Source of the DNA: Candidatus Obscuribacteraceae bacterium
GTDB taxonomy: Bacteria > Cyanobacteriota > Vampirovibrionia > Obscuribacterales > Obscuribacteraceae
Length of the DNA stretch: 64,000 bases
Direction of reading: 5' to 3'
NCBI GenBank assembly: GCA_044229845.1
Contig: JBGASG010000005.1
Location: forward strand, 32,001 to 96,000
The notes under the pieces were generated by a model. That model saw nothing but the letters and a program-made list of their open reading frames with translations, was not told the DNA's origin and searched no databases. The translations under genes were made by a program, and so were the position numbers. The first letter of the stretch is position 1. The number at the start of each line of letters is the position of its first letter. Shown piece by piece: positions 13,885 to 32,220 of this stretch.

Positions 13885-14149
13885 GTATCAATCCTCCCGC
13901 GGAATGTAGGCACACCGAAGCGCCGCATTATGTGCGGTTTAGTGTGTATGCATACGGGCTACCTAGCGCCTATGCGGATCCGCTCGCAATCGAGATCGAT
14001 CGCGAGTTTTCGCCTGTGGTGCGCCTACCAAATCCTGATGCGTCTTTTGACGGGCGCAACGTTGGTATGGCCGGACAAGGCACGTATATGCTTCATTAAG
14101 AAGTATATGCGACCGGGCCCTTCACAACAAATTAAACCGTGTTCGAATA

Positions 14150-14559: not shown

Positions 14560-14707
14560 ATGAGAAAGCAAACGGTTAGTCGTCGTCTTAAATACCCGGT
14601 ACCACAATTCAAAATGGCATTGCTACGCGAAAAGGAAGGCAAGACGTTTGAAATCTTCAGACCGAGTGATGTCGAAGAGTTCGTTGAACCATTGAAGCAT
14701 TGCAGCG
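14560..14707 (+). pseudogene. radC: N-terminal fragment of a RadC/JAB-domain protein, truncated by the RIT end
   Basis: GGAGG SD then MRKQTVSRRLKYPVPQFKMALLREKEGKTFEIFRPSDVEEFVEPLKHCS. This resembles the lead-in of short RadC/JAB proteins and stops just before the expected E-x-F JAB start, exactly at the TTATGTG motif. Confidence 0.6.
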
Positions 14708-14794
14708 ATTATGTGTCCCAGGAGAATATGTTCCGGCGCAGTCCAGAACCCCGATATCAGCCGGGGGGAGGTCGTGGGTCCGGGAACATAAATG

Positions 14795-15802
14795 TCATAG
14801 AGAATCGAGCCATCTCAGCAGCGCTGCATCATCGCGCCAGCGAACATCAGCGTGGGCCTCTTCGTTTGATGTCGGTGGCCGACATGTTTTCATCGCTTCT
14901 TCCTTCATTCTCATGTTGATTTCCGCGTAGCGATTAGTTGTGTCGAGACTGACATGACCTAGCCATCCGCGAATCACATTTACTTCGACACCGGATTCGA
15001 GCAAATGAATCGCCGTCGTATGGCGGATGACGTGCGGCGAAACAGGCTTTGCAGAGCCATTCGTGCGCTTCTTCTTGATCTCGGCGGTGTGCTTGCGAAC
15101 AAGCTTGTAAATGCCGAATCTAGTCAGTGGTCGGCCGACATTTGACAGAAAAACTGGTTCTTGCGGAACGAAATTCCGACCGACGAGCATGCTTCTCAAC
15201 GTCTCAACCGTTTCTTTCCAGAGTGGGCAAGTTCGCCACTTTCCGCCCTTGCCATGCAACTGAACTCGCATTGCGTCCAACTCAAGTTGCTGCAACGTCA
15301 GACCTGCTACCTCTTGCACCCGGGCACCAGTGTTGTACATAAATAGGAGAATCGCTTTGTCTCTGAGACTCAGAATTGGCTTGCTGTCCGTGGATGCGGA
15401 TTTGAGCATTTGACTGATCTCCTCTATCTCCAGAAAGAACGTTTCTGGCGGATGACATCGCTTTACCTGGATAGTGGCTATCCGTTGCGCTTCCATAACG
15501 TACTCCGGTATGCGTGAAGCCATGTATTCACAAAACGTGTGCATAATGGCCAACCGATGATTGCGCGTTCGGATGGAATTGTGCCGATCGGTTTCTAGCC
15601 AGCGAAGAAACGCCGTGATTGACTCAAGGTCGAAATGGCGCAACTCTAACTTGGTGATCTTGCACTTTGATTTCTTCGAGGCAAATTGCAAATACAGGCG
15701 CAATGCGTCTCGATAGCTCTTCACGCTGGATGGAAGCAATCCTCTTTGGATGGGCAGATAGTCCACCAAAAATGAGTGCAAGACGTCTCCAATCTTGTTC
15801 AT
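14795..15802 (-). CDS. ritC: Tyrosine recombinase RitC
   Basis: TGARVQEV, HGKGGK, HVIRH, LGHVSLDTTNRY catalytic motifs; ends LLRWLDSL. Confidence 0.92.
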   Translation of the reverse strand: MNKIGDVLHSFLVDYLPIQRGLLPSSVKSYRDALRLYLQFASKKSKCKITKLELRHFDLESITAFLRWLETDRHNSIRTRNHRLAIMHTFCEYMASRIPEYVMEAQRIATIQVKRCHPPETFFLEIEEISQMLKSASTDSKPILSLRDKAILLFMYNTGARVQEVAGLTLQQLELDAMRVQLHGKGGKWRTCPLWKETVETLRSMLVGRNFVPQEPVFLSNVGRPLTRFGIYKLVRKHTAEIKKKRTNGSAKPVSPHVIRHTTAIHLLESGVEVNVIRGWLGHVSLDTTNRYAEINMRMKEEAMKTCRPPTSNEEAHADVRWRDDAALLRWLDSL

Positions 15803-16776
15803 AGATGCACCTCCCGTAGTGCTTCCATTGCCAACTTCTGGAAGCGAGTATTTGCTTCATCCAGCAATCCGTCCGTGATAGTCAAATAGACCGCCGTGTG
15901 CTGCAGCTCGGAATGTCCAAGAAAAGTAGCGAGCGGAAGCAAGTGATGAGAGGGATCTTTTCCTTCCCGATAAAAACGCATAAGAGTGTTGACAGCGAAG
16001 GAGTGTCTTAAGTCGTGAAACCTCGGTTCTCGCTGTCCAGCAGCCGGACGCAAATCCAACGCGAGCGTTAACTGTCGAAAGGTTCGCCATGTATTGCATG
16101 AATGCATAGCGGTTCGATCCTCGTGCCACCGGAACACCCGCTCCGATTTGTTCTCAATTTCCGAGTCGTTCACATACAAGCTGAGCTGTTGCGCCAGCTT
16201 AGGCCCCATCGGCAGGTAGCGGCTCTTACCGAACTTTGAGTTGGCGATCAGCAACACATTGCGTTCAAAATCAATATCGCCCACTCTTAAATTGCAGATC
16301 TCACCGACCCGCATTCCGAGCCCATACCCGAGTAAGATCATCATCTGCCATGTTGCTGCACGACGGTGAGCGTTAGACGTATCGTGCAAATCACTTGCTG
16401 CTGACAAAAGCCGCCGAACGTCTGCAGGCGTGAAAATGAATGGTAGCAATTTTTCATTGACTTGCCGCCGTTTCGTTCTTATGGGTGATACGCAGATTTG
16501 TTCTTGATTAACCATCCAATCAAACAGACGGCGAATGATCCCTAACCTGTAGTTGTGGGTTGTTGCCTGCATCGATGCCGATGACCGGAAGAACTGATCT
16601 ACGATGGCACCATCGATCTTGTCGATCGTTTGCACGCCAGTCTGCACCAGATAGCGATCTAGTGCTCGAAATGCCGGTTCCTCTGACTTGTACTTCTTAC
16701 ATAAGGCTCGCTTGTGCTCCAGGAATTGTTCAATTGACTCGGCTAAGCAGCTTCGATATCCAGTCCACTTTTTCAT
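15799..16776 (-). CDS. ritB: Tyrosine recombinase RitB
   Basis: GMRVGEI, SKFGKSR, HDLRHSFAV, LATFLGH...TAVYLTIT. Confidence 0.92.
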   Translation of the reverse strand: MKKWTGYRSCLAESIEQFLEHKRALCKKYKSEEPAFRALDRYLVQTGVQTIDKIDGAIVDQFFRSSASMQATTHNYRLGIIRRLFDWMVNQEQICVSPIRTKRRQVNEKLLPFIFTPADVRRLLSAASDLHDTSNAHRRAATWQMMILLGYGLGMRVGEICNLRVGDIDFERNVLLIANSKFGKSRYLPMGPKLAQQLSLYVNDSEIENKSERVFRWHEDRTAMHSCNTWRTFRQLTLALDLRPAAGQREPRFHDLRHSFAVNTLMRFYREGKDPSHHLLPLATFLGHSELQHTAVYLTITDGLLDEANTRFQKLAMEALREVHL

Positions 16777-18038
16777 AGCAGATCCTCCGCGAGTCCCATC
16801 GCCAGTTCCCGCAGAGACTCAATGTCCACTTTGGAATAAATGCGGGTTGAGTCCGGCGATTTGTGACCGACATAATCACCGATCAATTTCAACGAGAATT
16901 GCGCATCGACGAGTCTTTGAACGCATGTGTGCCTGAGCGTATGAGAACCACGCCTCGGTATATCTACGCCGGAAAGACGTAAGTAATGTACGGCGCGTCC
17001 AGACACCGATTGCCACGACATCGGCGTGACTGGGGCCTGCATACAGAAAAACAAGGCGCGTTCTTTCGTCTTCGGACGATCTTTCTCCAGATATTCGAGA
17101 ATCGCCCTGCCCACAACGCTCGACAATGGATATCCCGTGGAATGACCTGCCTTGCGTTCCCGAATAAGAAGCCGCTCGCTTTTCCAATCGATGTCATCCA
17201 GTGTAATGGCAGCCACTTCGCGCGCACGTAATCCGTACGTTACCAACAAGAGCAGAATTGCGTAGTCGCGTCGACCAACTGAAGTGCGGAGGTCGACTGC
17301 CTCTAACATTGTGCGCACTTCATCCCACGAAATCGACCGAGGCAAGTTTGCCAGGTCGTAAGAGTGGGGAAGTTCAACGACAACACTTAGATCTCGCGTC
17401 AGCAGCCGTTCTCTATAGAGGTACTTCAACATGACTCTGATCGGGCTTAGCACGCGGCTCAAAGACGCCTTGCCTAAACGATCTTTGGTATCAATAACAA
17501 AGCTGCTTAGAATGGGCGGAGATAGCTCGCCTACATCCACCACACCAATTCGATCAAGATAAGATTGCAACAAACCAAGCGAGTAATCATAGACGCGCAA
17601 GGATGCCTTGCTCAGCCCTCTCTCTTCCCTGAGGAATGCAAGAAAATCGTCCATAAATGCAAATCGCGCAGCATACGTGCGTCGGCGGCGGGACCGTCCG
17701 TCATATCCGGGCAGAATAACTGATAGCATCTGGCGAATGCATCCATGAACTTCTCTTTTGAAAACTTCCTGCCGATTTTCAGATCTGCCGAAACGGCTCC
17801 GCTCCTCGAAGTAACGGGCGAAGTCAGAAACGTAATGTTCGAGATGGGAAACGTTTGTGGCTCCCTGCTCCTTGGCGTAATCGCCAAACTGAACTAGCAA
17901 TGGGATTTTTCGATGAATCGTTCGCACGGAATGCTGCTGTTCTTCCATCCACGCGAGATACTTTTCTATCTCAAATGCAATCCATGATTGCCGTATTCTG
18001 TCGATCGTTTTTGGTTTCGAATAATAGTCTTCCAACAT
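16773..18038 (-). CDS. ritA: Tyrosine recombinase RitA
   Basis: RDYAILLLLVTYGLRAREV, HTLRH, VGHKSPDSTRIYSKVD; AAGGAG SD. Confidence 0.92.
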   Translation of the reverse strand: MLEDYYSKPKTIDRIRQSWIAFEIEKYLAWMEEQQHSVRTIHRKIPLLVQFGDYAKEQGATNVSHLEHYVSDFARYFEERSRFGRSENRQEVFKREVHGCIRQMLSVILPGYDGRSRRRRTYAARFAFMDDFLAFLREERGLSKASLRVYDYSLGLLQSYLDRIGVVDVGELSPPILSSFVIDTKDRLGKASLSRVLSPIRVMLKYLYRERLLTRDLSVVVELPHSYDLANLPRSISWDEVRTMLEAVDLRTSVGRRDYAILLLLVTYGLRAREVAAITLDDIDWKSERLLIRERKAGHSTGYPLSSVVGRAILEYLEKDRPKTKERALFFCMQAPVTPMSWQSVSGRAVHYLRLSGVDIPRRGSHTLRHTCVQRLVDAQFSLKLIGDYVGHKSPDSTRIYSKVDIESLRELAMGLAEDLL

Positions 18039-18184
18039 TCGGAATCTCCTTTCGAAGTGAGTTCGAATGAAGATCTTCCTCGTGGACCAATAAACAATGT
18101 GGTCCCGTCGATATGCTTAATCGCCGTCCGCTCGCGCCGCAGTCCGGAAGCGAGTGACTGTCCAAATGTTGCGGCGGTTCGTCG

Positions 18185-19957
18185 TTAGGTCACTGCTGTT
18201 AACCGATTCTTGCCGCCAAGCATCTTCTCTAGCCCGGTCGTATCCGAAGGCGATTCCGGCAGCCACTGAACGACGGCAACTCGACTGGAGAGTTGCTTCA
18301 CTTCATCAATGTAGAGCTGCTCGACTTGCTGACGTGCCAGCAAAGTCGGATTCTTGGTTTGAACAGGGGACAGCGATTGATTGATGACCCAGGCAAACGG
18401 ATAGATATCCGCCCGCGCCAAATCTTCCTGAAGGCGCTTTGCCTCATGCACCGGAGTTGCTTCAGGCAAAGTAACGATCAATATGCGCGTGTAATTCTTG
18501 TCTCTCAGGCGCGGCAACAGGTTGATCACTGAGTCTGGCATGTTGCTCGATTGACGCAGCACCTCTTTGTGATATGCCTGGGCCGCATCCAACAACAAGA
18601 TAGTGTGCCCGGTTGGTGCTGTATCCAGAACGACAAAGCCGGACTGCCCAGCGGCTACCTTATTAGCAAAACTTCTAAAGACGGCTACTTCCTCGGTGCA
18701 AGGTGAACGCAGATCTTCATCAAGGAGTGCACGCCCCTGTTCATCGAGGTTGCCACCAGCAGTCTGCATAACTTCGTCTTGATAGGCTTTTGTTTCTTCC
18801 GTAGGATCGATTCGACTAATCGTCAAAAGAGGCACAGGATTCTCAACAACCCATGCAATGTGCGCAGCAGGGTCTGTTGTGGTCAAATGCACAGGGTGAC
18901 CGCGACGAGCCAACTCCACTGCTATCGCTGCTGCAATGCTCGTCTTGCCGACGCCGCCCTTGCCCATGGTCATGATCACGCCCTTGCCCGATTTCTCCAA
19001 GTCATTCACAAGCTCCATTAAAGGCGCCGGGAGTTCTTGATCAGCGGCCAATCCATCAAAAACATGAGCGGAGTGGTCTGCCTCAAACATAACGCGCAGC
19101 GCGTCCACACCAAGTAGGGGTCTTGCGCTGAGCAGCACCTCAAGGGTCGGAAGGACTGACAATTCTTTCGGCATAGAGCTCACCGCAGACTGTCCACGGA
19201 TCAAAAACGCAGATGCGATAGCATCGCCCGTGGTATCAGCCTTCAGCACGCCGTTGAGAACCAGGCATTGATTCTGCACGCCAATCTCCCGCAATTCAAC
19301 ACTCGTTTTCGCCGCCTCTTTCAATGCCGACTGTTCTGGCCGCGATACTAGTATCAGCGTAGTGCGAGCACCGTCCATCAGCGTGCGCACGGATGAAGCA
19401 TAAACTTCTTGCTGCTGTTGGAGTCCTGACAGGGGTCCGAGGCAAGACATGCCGGTTGTATTGTCTTCAATAAAAGTAGTCCAAGACTTAGGCAGCGACA
19501 AGAGCCGCATTGTATGCCCCGTCGGTGCGGTATCAAAAATTACGTGATCGTAGTCAGCGGTGTGACTGGCGTCGCCCAGAAGACGTGCGAATTCATCAAA
19601 TGCAGCTATCTCAGTGGTGCAGGAGCCGGATAGTTGCTCTTCCATACTCTTCAAGCTTGCCTCTGGCAGAAGTCCTCGGTACGGTCCCAACAGCCTCTCC
19701 CGGTACTCGCGTGCGGCCGCCTCGGGATCTATGTTGAGAGCGTCAAGCCCTTTCACACCAGGCACAGCTGTTGGCGTGGAGCTAAGCTCAACGCGCAAAA
19801 CTTCATCCAGGTTTGACGCTGGATCGGTGCTGACGAGAAGCACTCGCTTCCCGGCGTCGGCAAGAGCTATGGCAGTTGCGCATGACACCGAGGTTTTGCC
19901 CACACCACCTTTGCCAGTAAAGAACATGTACTTGGTGGCTTGTTCAACAAGATTCAT
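18185..19957 (-). CDS. arsA: Arsenical pump-driving ATPase ArsA
   Basis: Two GKGGVGKT P-loops, two DTAPTGH motifs, metalloid-binding Cys in SGSCTTEI, SCLGPL and RSPCTEE. Confidence 0.97.
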   Translation of the reverse strand: MNLVEQATKYMFFTGKGGVGKTSVSCATAIALADAGKRVLLVSTDPASNLDEVLRVELSSTPTAVPGVKGLDALNIDPEAAAREYRERLLGPYRGLLPEASLKSMEEQLSGSCTTEIAAFDEFARLLGDASHTADYDHVIFDTAPTGHTMRLLSLPKSWTTFIEDNTTGMSCLGPLSGLQQQQEVYASSVRTLMDGARTTLILVSRPEQSALKEAAKTSVELREIGVQNQCLVLNGVLKADTTGDAIASAFLIRGQSAVSSMPKELSVLPTLEVLLSARPLLGVDALRVMFEADHSAHVFDGLAADQELPAPLMELVNDLEKSGKGVIMTMGKGGVGKTSIAAAIAVELARRGHPVHLTTTDPAAHIAWVVENPVPLLTISRIDPTEETKAYQDEVMQTAGGNLDEQGRALLDEDLRSPCTEEVAVFRSFANKVAAGQSGFVVLDTAPTGHTILLLDAAQAYHKEVLRQSSNMPDSVINLLPRLRDKNYTRILIVTLPEATPVHEAKRLQEDLARADIYPFAWVINQSLSPVQTKNPTLLARQQVEQLYIDEVKQLSSRVAVVQWLPESPSDTTGLEKMLGGKNRLTAVT

Positions 19958-19996
19958 TTAGGCTCCTTTGAAAATTTTGCTCTGGCACTTCGATGA

Positions 19997-20437
19997 TTAG
20001 CAACAAGAGGATTTCTTGTTTGATTTCTTTTCGGCGGTTTCGTCGCAGCAGGCGTCTTCCGTTGCCGGGACACTGCAGCAACCGGAACCCGCTGAAGAAG
20101 TTGGCTCAACGGTGACCTTCAATCCAGGTTTTGGAGCTTCAAGACCGGCCAAGTGAGCGAGCTTTTCGCGCGTTGGATAAGCGCCCTGTACAACGATTTT
20201 GCCATCTATGAGAATCAAAGGTAAGCAATCATTGCCATGCTCCTTAAGCGCAGTGGTGACAGTTGAATTACTGACGAAGGACTGGGGTTGCTGAGAGAGG
20301 TTGTATCGTTCGACCTCAACGCCCTGGCGCTTCAACCAATCGAGATCCGCACTAAATGCCACAAGAGCGGGGTCTACGCCCGGACCGCAAATGCCCGTCG
20401 AACAGCACATCGGTGGATCGAATATTTGGAATTTCAT
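19997..20437 (-). CDS. arsD: Arsenite metallochaperone ArsD with a Cys-rich tail
   Basis: MKFQIFDPPMCCSTGICGPGVDP; AAGGAG SD before ATG 20437; tail has three CC pairs. Confidence 0.96.
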   Translation of the reverse strand: MKFQIFDPPMCCSTGICGPGVDPALVAFSADLDWLKRQGVEVERYNLSQQPQSFVSNSTVTTALKEHGNDCLPLILIDGKIVVQGAYPTREKLAHLAGLEAPKPGLKVTVEPTSSAGSGCCSVPATEDACCDETAEKKSNKKSSCC

Positions 20438-20474
20438 GTTCACTCTCCTTACTTGTTTTCGCACTTGTTGGTCA

Positions 20475-21563
20475 TTAACATTGCTTACTGGAAGTTCCTT
20501 TCTCATACCAGCCTTTGCTTGTATTGACGATTTTGACAACAGCGAGCATTACCGGTACTTCAATGAGCACACCAACCACTGTGGCAAGCGCGGCGCCGGA
20601 GTTGAAGCCGAATAGGCTGATCGCAGTAGCTACGGCCAGTTCAAAGAAATTGCTGGCTCCGATCAATGCCGATGGACATGCGACGCAGTGGGCGACGCCG
20701 AATTTTCTATTGAGCAAGTATGCAACCGATGAATTGAAGAACACCTGAATCAGAATAGGCACCGCGAGCATCGCAATGACGAGCGGTTGCTTGAGAATGG
20801 CTTCTCCTTGAAATGCAAAGAGCAAAACAAGAGTTGTGAGTAGAGCGGCCAGTGAAACCGGATGCAGAAAAGCTAATGTTTTATCGAATGCTTCTTGTCC
20901 ACGCTTCAGTAACGCGGACCTCCACACCTGTGCAATCAAGACCGGTATCACAATATACAGCCCAACAGAAATGAATAGTGTGTCCCAAGGAACCGTTATA
21001 GAGGACAAGCCCAACAGCAAACCGACAATCGGCGCGAATGCAAAGATCATGATTACATCGTTGACAGCGACTTGCGAAAGCGTGAAGTACGGATCGCCCT
21101 TAGTCAGCTGACTCCAGACAAATACCATGGCGGTGCATGGCGCAGCAGCAAGCAAAATTAACCCTGCGATATAGCTGTCAATCTGATCATTCGGAAGATA
21201 CGGAGCGAACAGAACACGAATAAATACATACGCGAGCAGGGCCATAGAAAACGGCTTGATCGCCCAGTTTATGAACAGCGTGACGCCTACGCCTTTCCAG
21301 TGTTTCTTCACTTGCCCCAGAGCGCTGAAGTCGATTTTCAAAAGCATCGGCACAATCATTAACCAAATCAGCAGTCCGACGGGAATGTTGACACGAGCTA
21401 CTTCGAGCGAGCCGATCAATTTGACCGGACCGGGCAAGAGTTGGCCAAGAATGATCCCGGCTGCAATACAGAGGAAAACCCAGACAGTTAGCCAGCGCTC
21501 GAAGAAACCAATCGTCGCCTCCCTTTGCTCCTTATCCACGATGTCAGTTGGCGAGACGCTCAT
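20475..21563 (-). CDS. acr3: Acr3-family arsenite efflux transporter
   Basis: FFERWLTVWV, AAAPCTAMVFVWS, GASNFFELAVA, GVLIEVPVML; GGAGG before ATG 21563. Confidence 0.96.
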   Translation of the reverse strand: MSVSPTDIVDKEQREATIGFFERWLTVWVFLCIAAGIILGQLLPGPVKLIGSLEVARVNIPVGLLIWLMIVPMLLKIDFSALGQVKKHWKGVGVTLFINWAIKPFSMALLAYVFIRVLFAPYLPNDQIDSYIAGLILLAAAPCTAMVFVWSQLTKGDPYFTLSQVAVNDVIMIFAFAPIVGLLLGLSSITVPWDTLFISVGLYIVIPVLIAQVWRSALLKRGQEAFDKTLAFLHPVSLAALLTTLVLLFAFQGEAILKQPLVIAMLAVPILIQVFFNSSVAYLLNRKFGVAHCVACPSALIGASNFFELAVATAISLFGFNSGAALATVVGVLIEVPVMLAVVKIVNTSKGWYEKGTSSKQC

Positions 21564-21570
21564 TTCTCGA

Positions 21571-22167
21571 TTACGCCTCCGCCACTTCATTTGCCGTCGA
21601 GGTCGCTGGTCCACATTGAGTGCCAGGTTCGCAACACGGGCCCGATGAAGCGGTATTGGAACACGACTGTTTTGATGCGGATCTGTTTAGCAACCAGAAT
21701 GATCCAGCAATGGATAAAGTGGTAATGCCGGCCACCAGCGGCTTTGCAAACGGCAAAAAGCCCGCTCCCAGTAAACTTATGTAGACACCCAACATCGGCG
21801 AGCCGCAACAACCGGTCATCCAGCATCCTGCGAATCCAAGAAGCGCGGAGAGGCTCAGACCACCTACGGCTGCTCCTTTGGCAGCGGCTTGTGCCCGATG
21901 TTCAAAGAATTGCCGGATGGCAAATGCAGCAAAAGCCAGAGGCAATGCAATCGAATAGCCGAGCAAGTAACTCTGCGTGCTGATGTATTGGCTGCCGACT
22001 GCGGGCGGGGCTGCACAGGCAGTCTCGCAACTTCCACAGCCGCTTTCGGCCCCGGAGGAAGATCCACCCGAGAGCGCGAACCAAATAAAGTGTCCTGCAA
22101 ATGCCATGACAAAGACAGACAGCGGAAGCAGCGCTCGAACAAGTTTATTGCTGGTATGTTTACTCAT
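21571..22167 (-). CDS. Uncharacterised Cys-rich membrane protein (~4 TM, 10 Cys) inside the ars operon
   Basis: 198-aa ORF fills the gap between arsC and acr3 on the same strand; CGSCETAC, GCWMTGCCGSP and PCCEPGTQC motifs. Confidence 0.8.
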   Translation of the reverse strand: MSKHTSNKLVRALLPLSVFVMAFAGHFIWFALSGGSSSGAESGCGSCETACAAPPAVGSQYISTQSYLLGYSIALPLAFAAFAIRQFFEHRAQAAAKGAAVGGLSLSALLGFAGCWMTGCCGSPMLGVYISLLGAGFLPFAKPLVAGITTLSIAGSFWLLNRSASKQSCSNTASSGPCCEPGTQCGPATSTANEVAEA

Positions 22168-22193
22168 GAGTTGTTACCACTGTGTTTCGTCTG

Positions 22194-22586
22194 TCATTTA
22201 GTCACTTTTGTTTTGGCGAGTTCTTCGACCTTGGCTTTGATCTCGTCACGCACACGCCGAAACACATCGAGTGGCTGACCTTTCGGATCTTCAATATTCC
22301 AATTCGCTTGCGTGCCAATGAAAGTCGATGGGCAGAAATCAGACGTTTTGACTGAACACATCGAGATTATCGCGTCATAGCTTGCAAGCTTCTCGTTGTC
22401 TATGGCCTTTGAGAACTGATTCGAAATATCTATACCTGCTTCCGCCATTACGTTGACCGCGTTAGGATTTACGCCAGACCCAGCTTTCACGCCAGCGCTT
22501 TCAGCTTCGAGTCCGACCTGGCGTGCAAAGCCCTCCGCAATCTGGCTGCGACAGCTGTTCTCCACGCATATAAATAAGACCTTCAA
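22194..22586 (-). CDS. arsC: Arsenate reductase ArsC (LMW-PTP fold, thioredoxin type)
   Basis: CVENSCRSQIAEG P-loop, distal Cys pair MCSVKTSDFCP, WNIEDP; TTG start overlaps the arsI stop (TTGA). Confidence 0.92.
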   Translation of the reverse strand: MKVLFICVENSCRSQIAEGFARQVGLEAESAGVKAGSGVNPNAVNVMAEAGIDISNQFSKAIDNEKLASYDAIISMCSVKTSDFCPSTFIGTQANWNIEDPKGQPLDVFRRVRDEIKAKVEELAKTKVTK

Positions 22587-23047
22587 TTGCAACACCCCTT
22601 CTTTGTGTTTTGTACTGATACTGTCTCTGGTGCGCAGCACGAAGCTTTGCTTTCGCGCAACAACTGCACATCTTCGCCGTACGTGGTCGCTTCTCCGATG
22701 GTCAAGAATGACTCCCAAGCGATTCCTTGCGGGTCATGCACCCAAGTCTTGTCAGATTGCGCGTAGCAACACGTGGTTTTCTCCTGTTCGAGAATTTGTT
22801 GCTTCGCATCTTTCAGACGAACAGTGATTTCTTGGAGTGACTGTTCATCTTCAACTTGAATTCCTAGATGATCAAGACCCGCCTGCGCACCGCGCTTCGA
22901 AATGGCGAAGTTAATGCGCGGATCGTCCAGCATCCACTTCGCGTAGTCTTCTTTTTCGACAGTGGGCTTGGCGTTGAAGAATGTCGAATAAAACTGAATG
23001 GATTGCTCCAAATCAGCTACGGCAACATGTACGTGAAACCTTTTCAT
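22583..23047 (-). CDS. arsI: ArsI/CadI-family VOC metalloenzyme (C-As lyase-like)
   Basis: MKRFHVHVAV, DYAKWMLDDPRINFAIS, TTCCYAQSDKTWVHDPQGIAWE; ATGA overlap with arsR. Confidence 0.9.
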   Translation of the reverse strand: MKRFHVHVAVADLEQSIQFYSTFFNAKPTVEKEDYAKWMLDDPRINFAISKRGAQAGLDHLGIQVEDEQSLQEITVRLKDAKQQILEQEKTTCCYAQSDKTWVHDPQGIAWESFLTIGEATTYGEDVQLLRESKASCCAPETVSVQNTKKGCCN

Positions 23048-23346
23048 TGGCATTTGCCTCCATTGTCAGCGCAGCAATTCTCAAGAAGAAAGTTGATCAG
23101 CTTCTGCATATGAGCGAAGTCTGCCGAATAGATGATCGAACGACTTTCCCGTCTGGACGTAATTAGTCCGGCGTTGGTCAATTCCTTTAGATGGAACGAC
23201 ATTGTGGCTGGCGGAAGTCCTAGCCGCTCACTCAACTCACCAGCAGCCAGCCCGCCCGGGCCGGTACGCACCAGCAACCTGAATACTTCCAAACGTGATT
23301 CTTGAGCCAGGGCAGAAAGTGCCCGGACCGCGTCTTTGCTTTTCAT
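23044..23346 (-). CDS. arsR: ArsR/SmtB repressor with a C-terminal CC...C As(III) site
   Basis: LSALAQESRLEVFRLLV, TMSFHLKEL, FLLENCCADNGGKC; likely start ATG 23346. Confidence 0.95.
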   Translation of the reverse strand: MKSKDAVRALSALAQESRLEVFRLLVRTGPGGLAAGELSERLGLPPATMSFHLKELTNAGLITSRRESRSIIYSADFAHMQKLINFLLENCCADNGGKCQ

Positions 23347-23353
23347 ATTTCCA

Positions 23354-23382
23354 ATATTATCGAACTGTCGAAATAATGTCAA
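23354..23382 (-). promoter_or_regulatory. Sigma-70 promoter of the ars operon with an overlapping imperfect inverted repeat (putative ArsR operator)
   Basis: Minus strand TTGACA-17 bp-TAATAT, ending 7 nt before the arsR ATG; overlapped by TATTTCGA-CAGT-TCGATAATA. Confidence 0.75.
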
Positions 23383-23984
23383 GGCGGCCTCCAAAGTTTG
23401 AGCATACCGGGGACGCCCTGACGCTTCATCGACCGAGCGGAGATCTGCCAATCATCCTTTTTGAGTATTAGGCGTAAATCGCTGGAGATTTATGTTCCGC
23501 GATGCAAGTGCTCAGTCAGCTGCAGCAGGCGTTGTCGGAAACGTGGGCACATATCCATATGCATTGGAACGGGCGAAGGGTTCGCGATCGAAACCACACT
23601 TAGGACCTTAATTGCTTTCAATCGCAAGCAGCAAAGAAAGCTGGTTTCTATAGAGAAATGATTTACATATGCGGTGGCGAGTTCGAGAATTGCTTGATGC
23701 GCGTTGTTGCACGTGGTTTGGCTGGAGGACATTCGGCGCCGGCCCAGCGCCTTCGGGAGATATGCCAAGCGAGCGTGAGAAATCTGCTGCGAGCAGTCCG
23801 AGAGATGGATGGCATTCGCGTGTACCACAACAGTCGTGCCGGGCCACCATAATTGGTACTGGAGGCGATCGGTGGCAAGATGATCCTACAATCAAGCAAT
23901 GCTACAAGCGTTGGTTCAAGCCGGTCCCGAAGAAACGGGAATCTTCGAACCCGGCAGCAGCGGAGTCCCCGGACTGCACAGTTT

Positions 23985-24246
23985 TTACTCCACCTGATTC
24001 CGGGCCCATTGGCCGATGCAATTCAAGAGACTCCAGACACTTTGTGTCGGATCTGACAATTCGTGCGGAATGCTGTATTTGCCTAACTCCAGTGCTCTCA
24101 TACCCTCTTCCAGTATTGCGTCTTTGCCTTTGTTATCGTCACTAAACCCCAAGGCATGAGTGATCATTCCTTCCAATTCACCGTGTGGAGCAATGAACAA
24201 TCCAAAGGTCGCTAATCCCCGAATGAGGTTTTCAGCTGATGTGCGA
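23985..24246 (-). pseudogene. C-terminal fragment of the IS3-interrupted ATPase/TOPRIM nuclease
   Basis: Removing the IS and one CGA copy restores the frame ...DNVLR/TSAENLIRGLATFGLFIAPHGELEGM...NQVE*. Confidence 0.85.
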
Positions 24247-24277
24247 TGAGGTGGGCCCCGACCTTCGGGCCATTTTC

Positions 24278-25206
24278 CTATATTGGCAAGCTAGTCTTTG
24301 CCGTGGTTGTGTCTTCCTTTACTGATACCACATACGATACTACACGGTCAAGTCCTATTTCCATGTTTTCTCTTTCTCTCGTTGTTTGGTAAACCTCCCA
24401 GGGTGTGCTGTAGCCGAGTGCCTGATGAGGACGCTCGAAGTTGTAGAAACGGAACCAGTCCGCGATGCTCGCTCGTGCTTCTTTGATGTCCTCGTACGCC
24501 TTTAGATAGACCTCTTCGTATTTGAGACTCCTCCAGAGGCGTTCAATGAAGATGTTGTCGAGGAATCGCCCTTTGCCGTCCATGCTAATGGCTATCCGCC
24601 TGTCTTCCAAGACGCCGGTGAAATCGTTGCTTGTAAATTGAGCGCCCTGATCCGTATTGAAGATCTCTGGCGCGCTGTAAGCCAGTGCGTCTTCAAGGCT
24701 TCCGTGCAGAAGCTTGTCTCCATCGAGTTTGATAGACGCCAGGACAGCACGAATCGGCTGTGCCAGTCGATGATCGCGACGAGATAGAGAAAGCCCTTCC
24801 TCATGGGTACGTAAGTGATGTCTGCGGCCCAGACCTGATCAGGGCGGTCGATAGTAACGCCGCGCAGCAGATACGGGTAAATCTTGTTTTCAGGTGCCGG
24901 CTTGCTGGTGCGCGGCTTGCGGTAGACCGCCTCTACACCCATTTTTCGCATGAGTCGCCGAACACGCTTTCGATTGACGGCATAGCCAGCCGTCTTCAGG
25001 GTCTCGGTCATGCGGCGACTCCCGAAGAATGGCGTCTTCATGTATTGCTTGTCGATAAACTGCATTAGCTCCAGATCCTGTGCGGTGGCTTCGGCCTTTT
25101 CGTAGTAAAGGCTCGACCGGTTTATTTCTAGCAGTTCGCACTGATGGCGAATAGATATGGATTTGTTGTCGTGCTCGATCAGCGAGATTCGCTGATCACG
25201 GCTCAG
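24278..25206 (-). pseudogene. IS3 transposase OrfB (DDE), frameshifted near 24697
   Basis: QVWAADITY...NTDQGAQF...DNIFIERLWRSLKYE motifs are split over two frames; one base is missing at GAA GCC (C)TT GAA. Confidence 0.85.
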
Positions 25207-25490
25207 TGACCGAGCTTTCGTGATAAAAAATCGTTCTCAACTTTCAGCTTGCCAATTTGTTCAAAGAGCTGCGACACGCTTTGGTCGGATAGCTGATCAC
25301 CCTTGGTTGCCGGCGCCTTCTCGAACACTGACGCTGCGTTTTCCAATAGTGCCTTCTTCCATGCGTGTATCTGGTGCGGATGCACCTCGTACTGACTGGC
25401 GAGCTCCGCTACGGTCTTTTCACCGCGCACCGCTTCCAGTGCCACTTTCGCCTTAAAGTCGGCGCTGTGCTTTTTCCTACTTCTCTTCAA
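25203..25490 (-). CDS. IS3 transposase OrfA
   Basis: [16 protein letters not shown]...[10 protein letters not shown]...[18 protein letters not shown] slippery site near its end. Confidence 0.92.
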
Positions 25491-25569
25491 TTCGGCCTCT
25501 TTCTAGCATTGCTAGTTTAGAAGCAAAGGTGTCACTTAGCCAGTGGCCTAAATTGTTGGGACCAGCTCA

Positions 25570-27011
25570 CGAAGCACGTTATCCAGCAAACGAAGACCTT
25601 GACGCTTCAATCGGACTTTGAATGCTTCGTCTGCAGTAAACAAGTTTTGCAACTCTAACTGCAACTCGCTGAGCAATTCCAGAATTTGCTTTTGGTCGTC
25701 GTGAGGAATTTGCAGACGATCAAGAGTCGCCTTTTCCCATTTAATACCTTCAGAGTAGAGTGCGTCGAAGTCAAGCAAGGCTGCCGTCGGGGTGCCTGTC
25801 TTACGCATCACTTGCGCTACTTTTAGTGCTTGGGCATAGCTTCCTGCTGAAACAAAATGTGAATCACGAATGCCACAACTCGGTCTCTGTTGCTGCAAAC
25901 ATCTGTTGAATTCAGTGTAGGCAATCTTATCGAACGCCCCTTCGACGACAACGGTTGCGTCATGAAAGATCCCGTCAAGTGCGTCCGTATTGCGAACTAC
26001 CCGGTCCATGACGAATGGCTCCAGTGCGGATTTCGATACCACACTTGCGGTGCCGTGATCTGATTTCTTTGAGTACGTCAAACGAGCCATTGCAATATCA
26101 TCTGTGCTACTCACGCATCCAGCGACGAAATCGGCGCTGTGCGTTGCGACAATTAGCTGGCCGCTACGTTTTGCGATTTCGCGAACCAAATGTTGAGCAA
26201 ATCGGTTTGCGAGCGGAGGATGCAGATGTAGTTCTGGCTCGTCCAGCAAGACTAGTTTATGTTCGAATGGAAAAATAGACAACACCAGACCGATGAAGGC
26301 ACGGAGTCCATCTCCGAATGAATCTATGCCGATGCCCCGGTCATAATAATCTTGCAGTGTTTTCGATATTATGACTCCAGGCATTTCAATAGGGGGTTGC
26401 TCAGGATTCAATTGCAAGTGCAATTGGCCGCTTTGTAGCTTTTGCACCGCTACGTAGTATCCAGATGCGGGATAAACAATCTCGTTTACTTTATCCAAGC
26501 GCGCTCTATCAGCCAATAAAAGATGATGCACCCAGCGATATCGGTCGCCAGGAATGATGGTGCTAGCGTCTGAATCGCCCGTTATAGCTGTGATACTGTT
26601 CAGCGATGCCATTCTCCGCAATCTGCCGAGATGATTACTGCGCCAGCTCTTCTGATTGAAAAAATTGGGCGTGCAGAACTCTCGCAGAAAAAGGTCAGTG
26701 GCGTTGGACTTTAGGTCTGGTTCGTTTTCCCATTTTGAGTACTCCGCTTCTGAGTATTCCACGAGCTTTAGCGGTTCTAGAAATTTGATTGCCTCATTCC
26801 TATCGAGAATCTTGAACGATGCGTCGCGGAACAATCGTGGCTCTATCGTCTCATGACTGCCGTCATACCATTCCTGAATAGACAACGTAGCTAGCGTCTT
26901 TCCCGACTCATTGGGACCAACAAACAATAAAACGGTTGGTAAGTGTACGGTTTCTCCAGGTTCGGCTCTTCGTGGGCCGTACTTGAATGTGAGTGTATGT
27001 ATTCGGGCCAT
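25570..27011 (-). pseudogene. ABC-type ATPase plus TOPRIM nuclease (OLD-like), N-terminal part, interrupted by IS3
   Basis: Walker A VGPNESGKT, signature GDGLR, Walker B LLDEPELHLHP, H-loop ATHS, TOPRIM VVVEGAFD and DFD; likely start ATG 27011. Confidence 0.85.
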
Positions 27012-27070
27012 TTGCAGTATGGTTTTCCCTAAGTGCCCCGGTGATGCCCCGCCAAAATTGGCCACCCCAC

Positions 27071-27099
27071 AAAAAAACCGCTTCGATCTGCGCAAGCGG
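27071..27099 (-). terminator. Intrinsic terminator downstream of the tRNA
   Basis: Minus strand CCGCTT...AAGCGG followed by T7. Confidence 0.7.
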
Positions 27100-27122: not shown

Positions 27123-27196
27123 TGCGCCGAGAGGGATTCGAACCCCCGACCGACTGGTTCGAAGCCAGTTACTCTATCCAGCTGAGCTATCGGCGC
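27123..27196 (-). tRNA. tRNA-Arg, anticodon UCG; CCA not encoded
   Basis: GCGCCGATAGCTCAGCTGGATAGAGTAACTGGCTTCGAACCAGTCGGTCGGGGGTTCGAATCCCTCTCGGCGCA folds as a cloverleaf; anticodon arm ACTGG-CT TCG AA-CCAGT; TATAAT just upstream. Confidence 0.95.
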
Positions 27197-31560: not shown

Positions 31561-32220
31561 ATGGCTGATGTCTTGAAAGTCGATGGCGCGGAAGCCGGCC
31601 ACCAGCAGTGGCAAGGCATTGCCGCCGATTTATGGAGAAACGGCGACAGCCGGAGCGCGGAGAGAAATCCGCCACCGGCCGCCACTGGTGACACCAAGGT
31701 GGAGTATGACTCCAATGGAAAAATCTCCACTGTCGAAATGCAGAACGGTTGGAAATTTACGCGCGGTGCGGATGGAAATTATGAAGGAGTCGGACCCAAT
31801 GGTGAGCGCGTCTCTTGGATCAAAGAAATGCAGGTCGGCAAAGATGGAGCCGTCACTTACCAGAGCAGCAACGACTTCGGCGGAAGAGACCATGTGTTTC
31901 TGCGAACCGATGGGCAGGCTCTCACAGCCTCCTATGACGGAGCAGGCGAATTGATGTCTGTGCAATTGCCGGGTGAGCGGGAGATGCGCATCGCGCGTGA
32001 CTCTGCTGGCAACTACACACGTTCCTGGTTGGCGCCAGATGGCAAACGATACTTTGAGCCGGTGGTCGATGTGACTGTGTATGACAACGGCAGTGTGTCA
32101 TGGAGTACTATCGACAGGCACAGCGACCTACTCTGGCGGCGCACGGTCACCCTTGGTGGTAAGGACGACGGCGGGATACCGAGACCACTGCCTGCGTACC
32201 TGAAATACAAGCTGGATTAA
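31561..32220 (+). CDS. Hypothetical protein with YD-like beta repeats
   Basis: AGGAGG SD; VEYDSNGKISTVEM, ASYDGAGELMSVQL. Confidence 0.75.
   Translation: MADVLKVDGAEAGHQQWQGIAADLWRNGDSRSAERNPPPAATGDTKVEYDSNGKISTVEMQNGWKFTRGADGNYEGVGPNGERVSWIKEMQVGKDGAVTYQSSNDFGGRDHVFLRTDGQALTASYDGAGELMSVQLPGEREMRIARDSAGNYTRSWLAPDGKRYFEPVVDVTVYDNGSVSWSTIDRHSDLLWRRTVTLGGKDDGGIPRPLPAYLKYKLD

Follow-up and report, generated by a model that had tools for sequence, protein, structure and literature searches.

A RIT recombinase trio in radC and its probable arsenic-resistance cargo in a Candidatus Obscuribacteraceae bacterium

RIT elements have been described as units of about 3,500 bp with three genes only, such as ritA2B2C2 of Cupriavidus metallidurans CH34 and the GI3 trio of Bordetella petrii (PMC2864759 and PMC3414803, in the parts available), and insertion of a RIT in radC is already known (PMC2864759, with the same limit). 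Here we examine a 64,000-nucleotide stretch of the genome of a Candidatus Obscuribacteraceae bacterium (the window, positions 32,001 to 96,000 of contig JBGASG010000005.1), in which a RIT trio and an arsenic-resistance (ars) operon lie side by side between inverted end motifs. Like described RITs, the locus has three tyrosine recombinase genes in a row that overlap by ATGA, ends in inverted orientation and an insertion in radC; unlike them, its distal end stands 5.45 kb from ritA, seven genes lie inside, and it is truncated. We regard it as probable that this is an 8.85-kb cargo RIT that held the ars operon and later lost part of one end. The original prediction, a RIT transposon enclosing the whole operon, thus survives insofar as the distal motif is a genuine end, and fails insofar as the transposon is not intact: the third site of the right end, a flanking palindrome and half of radC are missing, and the block occurs once.

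Among arsenic-resistance transposons is TnAtcArs. The block studied here resembles TnMARS1 in having an ars cluster between inverted ends, but the TnMARS1 block is nested in a mercury-resistance transposon, whereas the present one has RIT recombinases and ends and no DDE transposase inside (PMC6920998, seen in part). Several tyrosine recombinases with variable cargo and site-specific integration also characterize the GInts and the strand-biased circularizing elements (SEs), whose operons have four genes, ginABCD or intA, tfp, intB and srap (PMC5385486 and PMC10214605, in the sections available). GInts, according to the same sections, carry their cargo behind the operon and have direct repeats at their ends; the window has three recombinase genes, cargo before ritA and inverted three-site ends. 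Genes inside RIT ends are not described in the accessible parts of PMC5737581, PMC3414803, PMC8138268, PMC10214605, PMC5385486, PMC10322971 and PMC2864759; such genes may be described by Ricker et al. (2013) or by Van Houdt et al. (2009). As far as the available text of a 2023 paper goes, no RIT transposition reproduced in the laboratory was known to its authors (PMC10214605).

The trio is a RIT. Its genes lie on the minus strand in the order ritA (16773..18038, 421 aa, the longest), ritB (15799..16776, 325 aa) and ritC (14795..15802, 335 aa), an order that homologous trios keep, and ritB overlaps both neighbours by ATGA (16773-16776 and 15799-15802). PF00589 and the catalytic motif R..H-x-x-R..H..Y were found in all three proteins. 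In RitA, Pfam places one SAM-like domain at 130-210 and leaves residues 1-129 without a match; RitA has been described with two sequential core-binding domains (PMC8138268, in part). There is no fourth recombinase-operon gene, the element's end following directly after ritC with no open reading frame of at least 80 aa on that strand.

All five predicted motifs are present where the prediction put them. The left pair, ATATGTTCC at 14726 and GGAACATAAAT at 14783-14793, spans 68 bp, and the right pair, ATTTATGTTCC at 23488 and GGCACATAT at 23546-23554, spans 67 bp, both as predicted. The predicted 11-bp identity of their inner sites is real as well, this 11-mer occurring three times in the 5.16-Mb assembly, two of them at these inner sites. 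On the ritC side the end is complete (14709..14791: site 3 at 14709-14717, site 2 at 14726-14734 and inverted site 1 at 14783-14791), with no palindrome outside it. The right end (23490..23554: site 1 at 23490-23498, inverted site 2 at 23546-23554) is of ritC-side type by sequence and truncated; as foreseen, a third site is not recognizable there (-18.8 bits). From 14709 to 23554 the block measures 8,846 bp, with seven genes beyond the trio, one complete end, one that lacks site 3, and no near end beside ritA.

To score these sites we derived a matrix from the ritC ends of nine related RITs (27 sites in all, two of the RITs being near-identical), with the window excluded, and scanned the whole genome for inverted two-site pairs with spans of 63-67. 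The left end scored 29.1 bits and the right motif 26.3 bits, and the next best pair in the genome reached 17.6 bits. The right motif is therefore one of the genome's two best pairs at canonical spacing, and it stands inverted and upstream of ritA; the concern that the 23488 motif might be common genome-wide is not borne out at these spans. A scan of 275,653 bases surrounding 18 related ars loci found the pair at none of them (best score 19.3 bits), and so the right motif is not part of the ars promoter. On its score, orientation and spacing, we read the right-hand pair as a genuine RIT end, correctly oriented. Widening the spans to 54-90 added one further locus of at least 24 bits, an inverted two-site pair on contig C1 (C1:662188-662243; 25.6 bits, span 55) that lies far from any rit gene and is possibly a RIT-end relic.

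How complete RIT ends are built is apparent from related loci. Counting outward, each end has its inner site first, then an inverted one at about 65 bp, a third 17 bp beyond that and finally a 6-bp spacer. Of 29 elements read at both ends, 22 have a 20-bp palindrome outside one end only, 3 outside both and 4 outside neither. An inverted repeat and a palindrome were noted by Van Houdt et al. (PMC3414803), and Nielsen et al. proposed hairpins, circles not having been resolved (PMC5737581; both seen in part). At locus L242 (G048:C145, 5842-6038) two three-site ends are joined as end, spacer, palindrome, spacer and end, with ritC-tail remnants on both and non-rit genes inside, which looks like the joint of an integrated circle or a tandem insertion. 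From this anatomy we infer that strands may be exchanged across the 6-bp spacer. Orphan three-site ends occur at L095 (G044:C226:44527-44609) and L243 (G018:C18:63739-63820), with no rit gene in the 19-20 kb examined; L095 breaks radC at the codon that is also interrupted in the window, and L243 has a flank that is radC-like by inspection. These are possibly non-autonomous or broken RITs. In the genomes of the two closest relatives, ritC-type ends occur without ritC (L242, L243).

Cargo between a distal end and ritA is found among relatives of the window trio. Of 95 loci analysed, 81 contain a ritA start; under a first spacing rule, a ritA-side three-site end lay 113-154 bp upstream in 42 of these, 352-4250 bp upstream in 13, and nowhere in 26. 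Seventeen of the 26 proved to have a near end at longer spacing and nine had none, three of them with less than 150 bp of contig. After removal of L187 and L175 (contig edge, no open reading frame) from the 13 distal cases, 11 of the 81 loci are cargo elements. They fall into two lineages on the tree and, kin not being independent, count as two events rather than eleven. The tree is a quick maximum-likelihood one of 76 rows, with RitA proteins shorter than 380 aa omitted except L037 and with SH-aLRT support only. In all five cargo elements tested, the flanks rejoin into an open frame.

The window groups with L037, L001 and L002 (SH-aLRT 100 on that tree), and all three are without a near end. 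The two closest relatives whose ends can both be read have cargo between the distal end and ritA; the three-site distal ends of L001 and L002 stand 836 and 1266 bp upstream, and these two loci are 93.7% identical from the ritA start onward and differ in cargo. Unrelated cargo is likewise found in trios up to 99% identical in RitA (L189-L191; L164, L168, L176 and L195; L001 and L002), where identity stops about 150 bp inside the distal end. The layout of the window fits this cargo lineage. The nearest RIT relatives of its trio are Candidatus Obscuribacterales records. Further afield, a sample of 401 genomes of the phylum yielded one further trio, a scan of metagenome contigs with a single RitC query nothing, and viral contigs two partial matches only (52%). 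Nine plasmid records matched at less than 50% identity; four of them were retrieved, and those analysed (L217-L220) are all near-ended, with no cargo case.

At its left border the element interrupts a plus-strand radC/JAB-family gene, of which 49 codons remain (14560..14708); the last six bases, 14703-14708, would be the crossover spacer. Among the 106 other genomes of the order, 49 have a 155-aa RadC homolog whose N-terminus this 5' part matches, and the break after codon 49 falls at the same codon in L001 and L095. L001 splits radC cleanly, into aa 1-50 and 49-154. At the right border, outside the element, stands the fragment of an AAA_33/zeta-like ATPase gene (23559..23879, plus strand; homology from 23577, envelope 23559), headless and frameshifted, whose 5' part was not found in the assembly. 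The fragment begins 5-23 bp outside site 2, at the place expected for site 3, and appears to mark a breakpoint just beyond site 2. A deletion after insertion is the simplest history of this end, and because of it the capacity for excision has most likely been lost; in its present form the element is probably immobile.

Several candidates for a different account of the right border were set aside. The IS3-family insertion sequence (IS) at 24247-25569 was rejected as the cause of the deletion, a clean empty IS site lying 700 bp away. A use of site 2 as a crossover half-site found no support, since by inspection the bases beyond its 6-bp spacer mismatch the target half-site pattern. A search for a displaced palindrome or third site returned C22:72694 and C19:47278, both inside long open reading frames and taken as chance; an intergenic match at C1:213825 was also recorded. 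Separately, positions 13916-13937, 620 bp before radC, form a short, imperfect palindrome that includes a site resembling those of RITs or dif (11.4 bits).

The reading of the locus as a cargo RIT has to be weighed against a number of observations. The right end lacks the third site that is present in 93 of 94 strong ends, neither end has a palindrome, and the sequence between the sites differs between left and right. The right flank is a different gene, so that there is no split target, and DNA and protein profiles did not find the radC remainder in the 88%-complete assembly. A second copy of the block was looked for in its own assembly and none was found, the block being single-copy there. 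Its 5.45-kb cargo exceeds the largest seen among relatives (4.25 kb), though most contigs are short. The C1:662188 pair may be a second two-site relic in the genome. At L187, the distal call turned out to be the ritC end of a neighbouring RIT, L187 having a near end of its own. In the relatives L114 and L115, the distance between radC and an ars cluster is 3.5 and 8 kb, with no RIT detected, and so co-location in an island can arise without one. Finally, a remnant of a ritC tail adjoins the right end, and no such remnant accompanies any of the 13 distal ends.

This last point leads to the strongest alternative: the right motif could have belonged to a second RIT in inverted orientation, as its ritC-side end, and the genes of that RIT would have been deleted. 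The resident trio would have lost its own distal end, and the ars genes would have come between by shuffling in a tRNA-Arg island without ever being RIT cargo. The right end indeed looks ritC-side by descent, and may for that reason be a relic of a second RIT. Its inter-site log-odds are ritC-type (+8.0), a value reached by none of 35 ritA-side and 15 of 33 ritC-side ends under leave-one-out, and its five best pairwise matches are all ritC-side ends. Just before it, at 23469..23489 on the plus strand, lies what is probably the decayed tail of a ritC gene, a remnant of its last codons that scores 3.2 bits when one gap is allowed; 2 of 2740 background positions and none of 55 ritA-side ends (best -4.4) reach this score. 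L187 has the same layout with an intact neighbour, orphan ends occur in relatives (L095 and L243), and the two flanks of the window block are different genes. The sequence tests, including the profile test described next, were devised after the likeness had been noticed and are thus supportive rather than independent.

Conversely, a profile test gives a borderline outcome when the tail is included (23.0 versus 16.4 bits, a difference reached by 2 of 35 ritA-side ends), and the verified cargo ends of L189-L191 lean towards ritC by a similar margin. In L161, L162, L170 and L184, an identical 83-bp ritC-type sequence stands at both ends, an arrangement that assembly collapse could mimic; there, and probably in L189-L191, ritC-type sequence serves as the ritA-side end, and the group of four adjoins the larger cargo lineage on the tree. 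Moreover, the lineage of the window needs a distal end, for which the right motif is the sole candidate on the contig and has the right orientation, and descent from a second RIT can also be how a cargo RIT came by its end. The ritC-side features keep alive the suspicion that the 23488 motif belongs to a different element, and two separate relics are a serious explanation, though less probable than a truncated cargo RIT.

Far less plausible is a RIT of the ordinary kind, 3.4 kb long, with its end near 18.1 kb and the ars operon outside. The weak site ATGTGGTCCC at 18097, which the original prediction had raised as a possible true end, is present; it sits at the canonical inner position, 58 bp before the ritA start (18095..18106), and a near end exists in 60 of 81 loci (42 at the usual spacing, 18 at longer). 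The site scores 5.4 bits; by comparison, 41 of the 42 canonical elements have an inner site of 3.9-18.5 bits (median about 14) between -48 and -61. Sites 2 and 3, the palindrome and any radC remainder are missing there, no 17-bp site pair occurs anywhere in the window except at the left end, and a near end is absent from the three closest relatives as well. The lack of partner sites largely refutes an end at 18.1 kb, and the site is best read as a decayed inner site and no end. That the right motif is a chance occurrence or part of the ars promoter, as one might suspect from 233 single sites of at least 12.4 bits in the genome and the one other pair at 25.6 bits under wider spans, is barely credible given that it stands 8.7 bits above the next pair at canonical spacing, is absent from all the related ars loci and resembles RIT ends in its inter-site and tail sequence too.

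The presumed cargo is read on the minus strand, in the same direction as the trio, in the order arsR, arsI, arsC, a hypothetical gene, acr3, arsD and arsA (23346 to 18185), followed by ritA, ritB and ritC (18038 to 14795). Seven genes inside the ends had been predicted as ars genes; seven there are, six of them named ars genes and one a hypothetical. These are arsA, an arsenical pump-driving ATPase (18185..19957; TIGR04291, 782 bits against a cut-off of 650); the arsD metallochaperone gene (19997..20437); acr3, an arsenite efflux transporter (20475..21563; TIGR00832 over cut-off); the hypothetical (21571..22167), a cysteine-rich protein of 198 aa, hydrophobic by inspection; an arsC-like arsenate reductase of the LMWP family (22194..22586; below NCBIfam cut-offs); an arsI/cadI-family VOC metalloenzyme (22583..23053; NF041414 over cut-off); and arsR with its sigma-70-type promoter (23044..23382; start 23346, promoter 23382-23353). 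The hypothetical has no Pfam or NCBIfam match, its Atlas clusters, which score 0.90-0.95, are unnamed, and a homolog (67%) is present in 1 of 17 related ars loci. The promoter/operator before arsR is conserved in all 16 related loci shown. An origin of the cargo as an integron cassette was rejected: neither border has an attC-like fold, borders in relatives are ragged, and no match over the TIGR02249 cut-off for an integron integrase was found in the genome.

The rit and ars genes lie within a low-GC stretch to the left of a tRNA-Arg gene. Guanine-plus-cytosine content is 0.502 in rit, 0.517 in ars and 0.505 in the right part of the island, versus 0.572 beyond the tRNA, and gives no separation of rit from ars or from the right island part. 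The border of the stretch is tRNA-Arg(TCG) at 27123-27196, where no att repeat was found. A genome of the same genus (G072) has other genes at this tRNA, which suggests an island hot spot; its contig stops about 5.6 kb past the tRNA, with other genes, and the left border of the island is not fixed by the comparison. Sludge and bioreactor metagenomes make up the majority of runs with window DNA. Contigs from other runs bridge the rit-ars block, and depth is flat across 14-24 kb (contigs of 4 of 24 runs, 2 flagged as possible sources of the DNA). The contigs of four runs contain no joint at 14708 or 23554; since contigs drop rare forms, this is no evidence against excision. The IS3-family element, at several times the host depth, has entered an OLD-like ATPase/TOPRIM gene (25548-27095) close to its 3' end. 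In run X12, one contig passes directly from 24243 to 25570, which gives a clean empty site with 27 letters only on the short side, and an extra base at 24693 in 4 of 4 runs indicates that the assembly frameshift there may be an error.

Taking the locus as a truncated cargo RIT, we propose the following history. RitA, RitB and RitC would recognize TTATG-type sites, of which each end has three, and strands would be exchanged across the 6-bp spacer outside site 3, the 20-bp palindrome lying between the joined ends and being left on one side upon integration. A lineage that had lost the ritA-adjacent end would use a distal one, so that the DNA between that end and ritA would travel as cargo. In the window, a related RIT probably supplied the distal end from its ritC side, with the ars operon in the cargo slot; paired with the left end, this distal end would have allowed the element to move with the ars genes inside and to insert into radC at the Ser-Glu codons. 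Afterwards a deletion starting just beyond site 2 would have taken away site 3 and the palindrome, together with the remainder of radC and the front part of the ATPase gene. The broader proposition, which we judge to be evenly poised, is that some RIT lineages are cargo vectors that lost the ritA-side end, sometimes borrowed a distal end from another RIT's ritC side and swapped passengers quickly, and that the window one moved a complete ars operon into radC of a sludge Melainabacterium island before its right end was cut.

This locus adds an ars cargo, a second cargo lineage and a hint that distal ends may be borrowed from ritC ends. Because it is broken, the window copy is a weak example, and the intact L001, L002, L164, L176 and L189 are better test cases. 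The mapped end anatomy, with three sites, a 6-bp spacer, a one-sided palindrome and the L242 joint, provides defined substrates for tests of the mechanism. Should the cargo reading be true, island annotation that halts at ritA misses the real RIT ends, and if RIT lineages carry operons, they would represent an overlooked route for the spread of metal resistance in wastewater bacteria.

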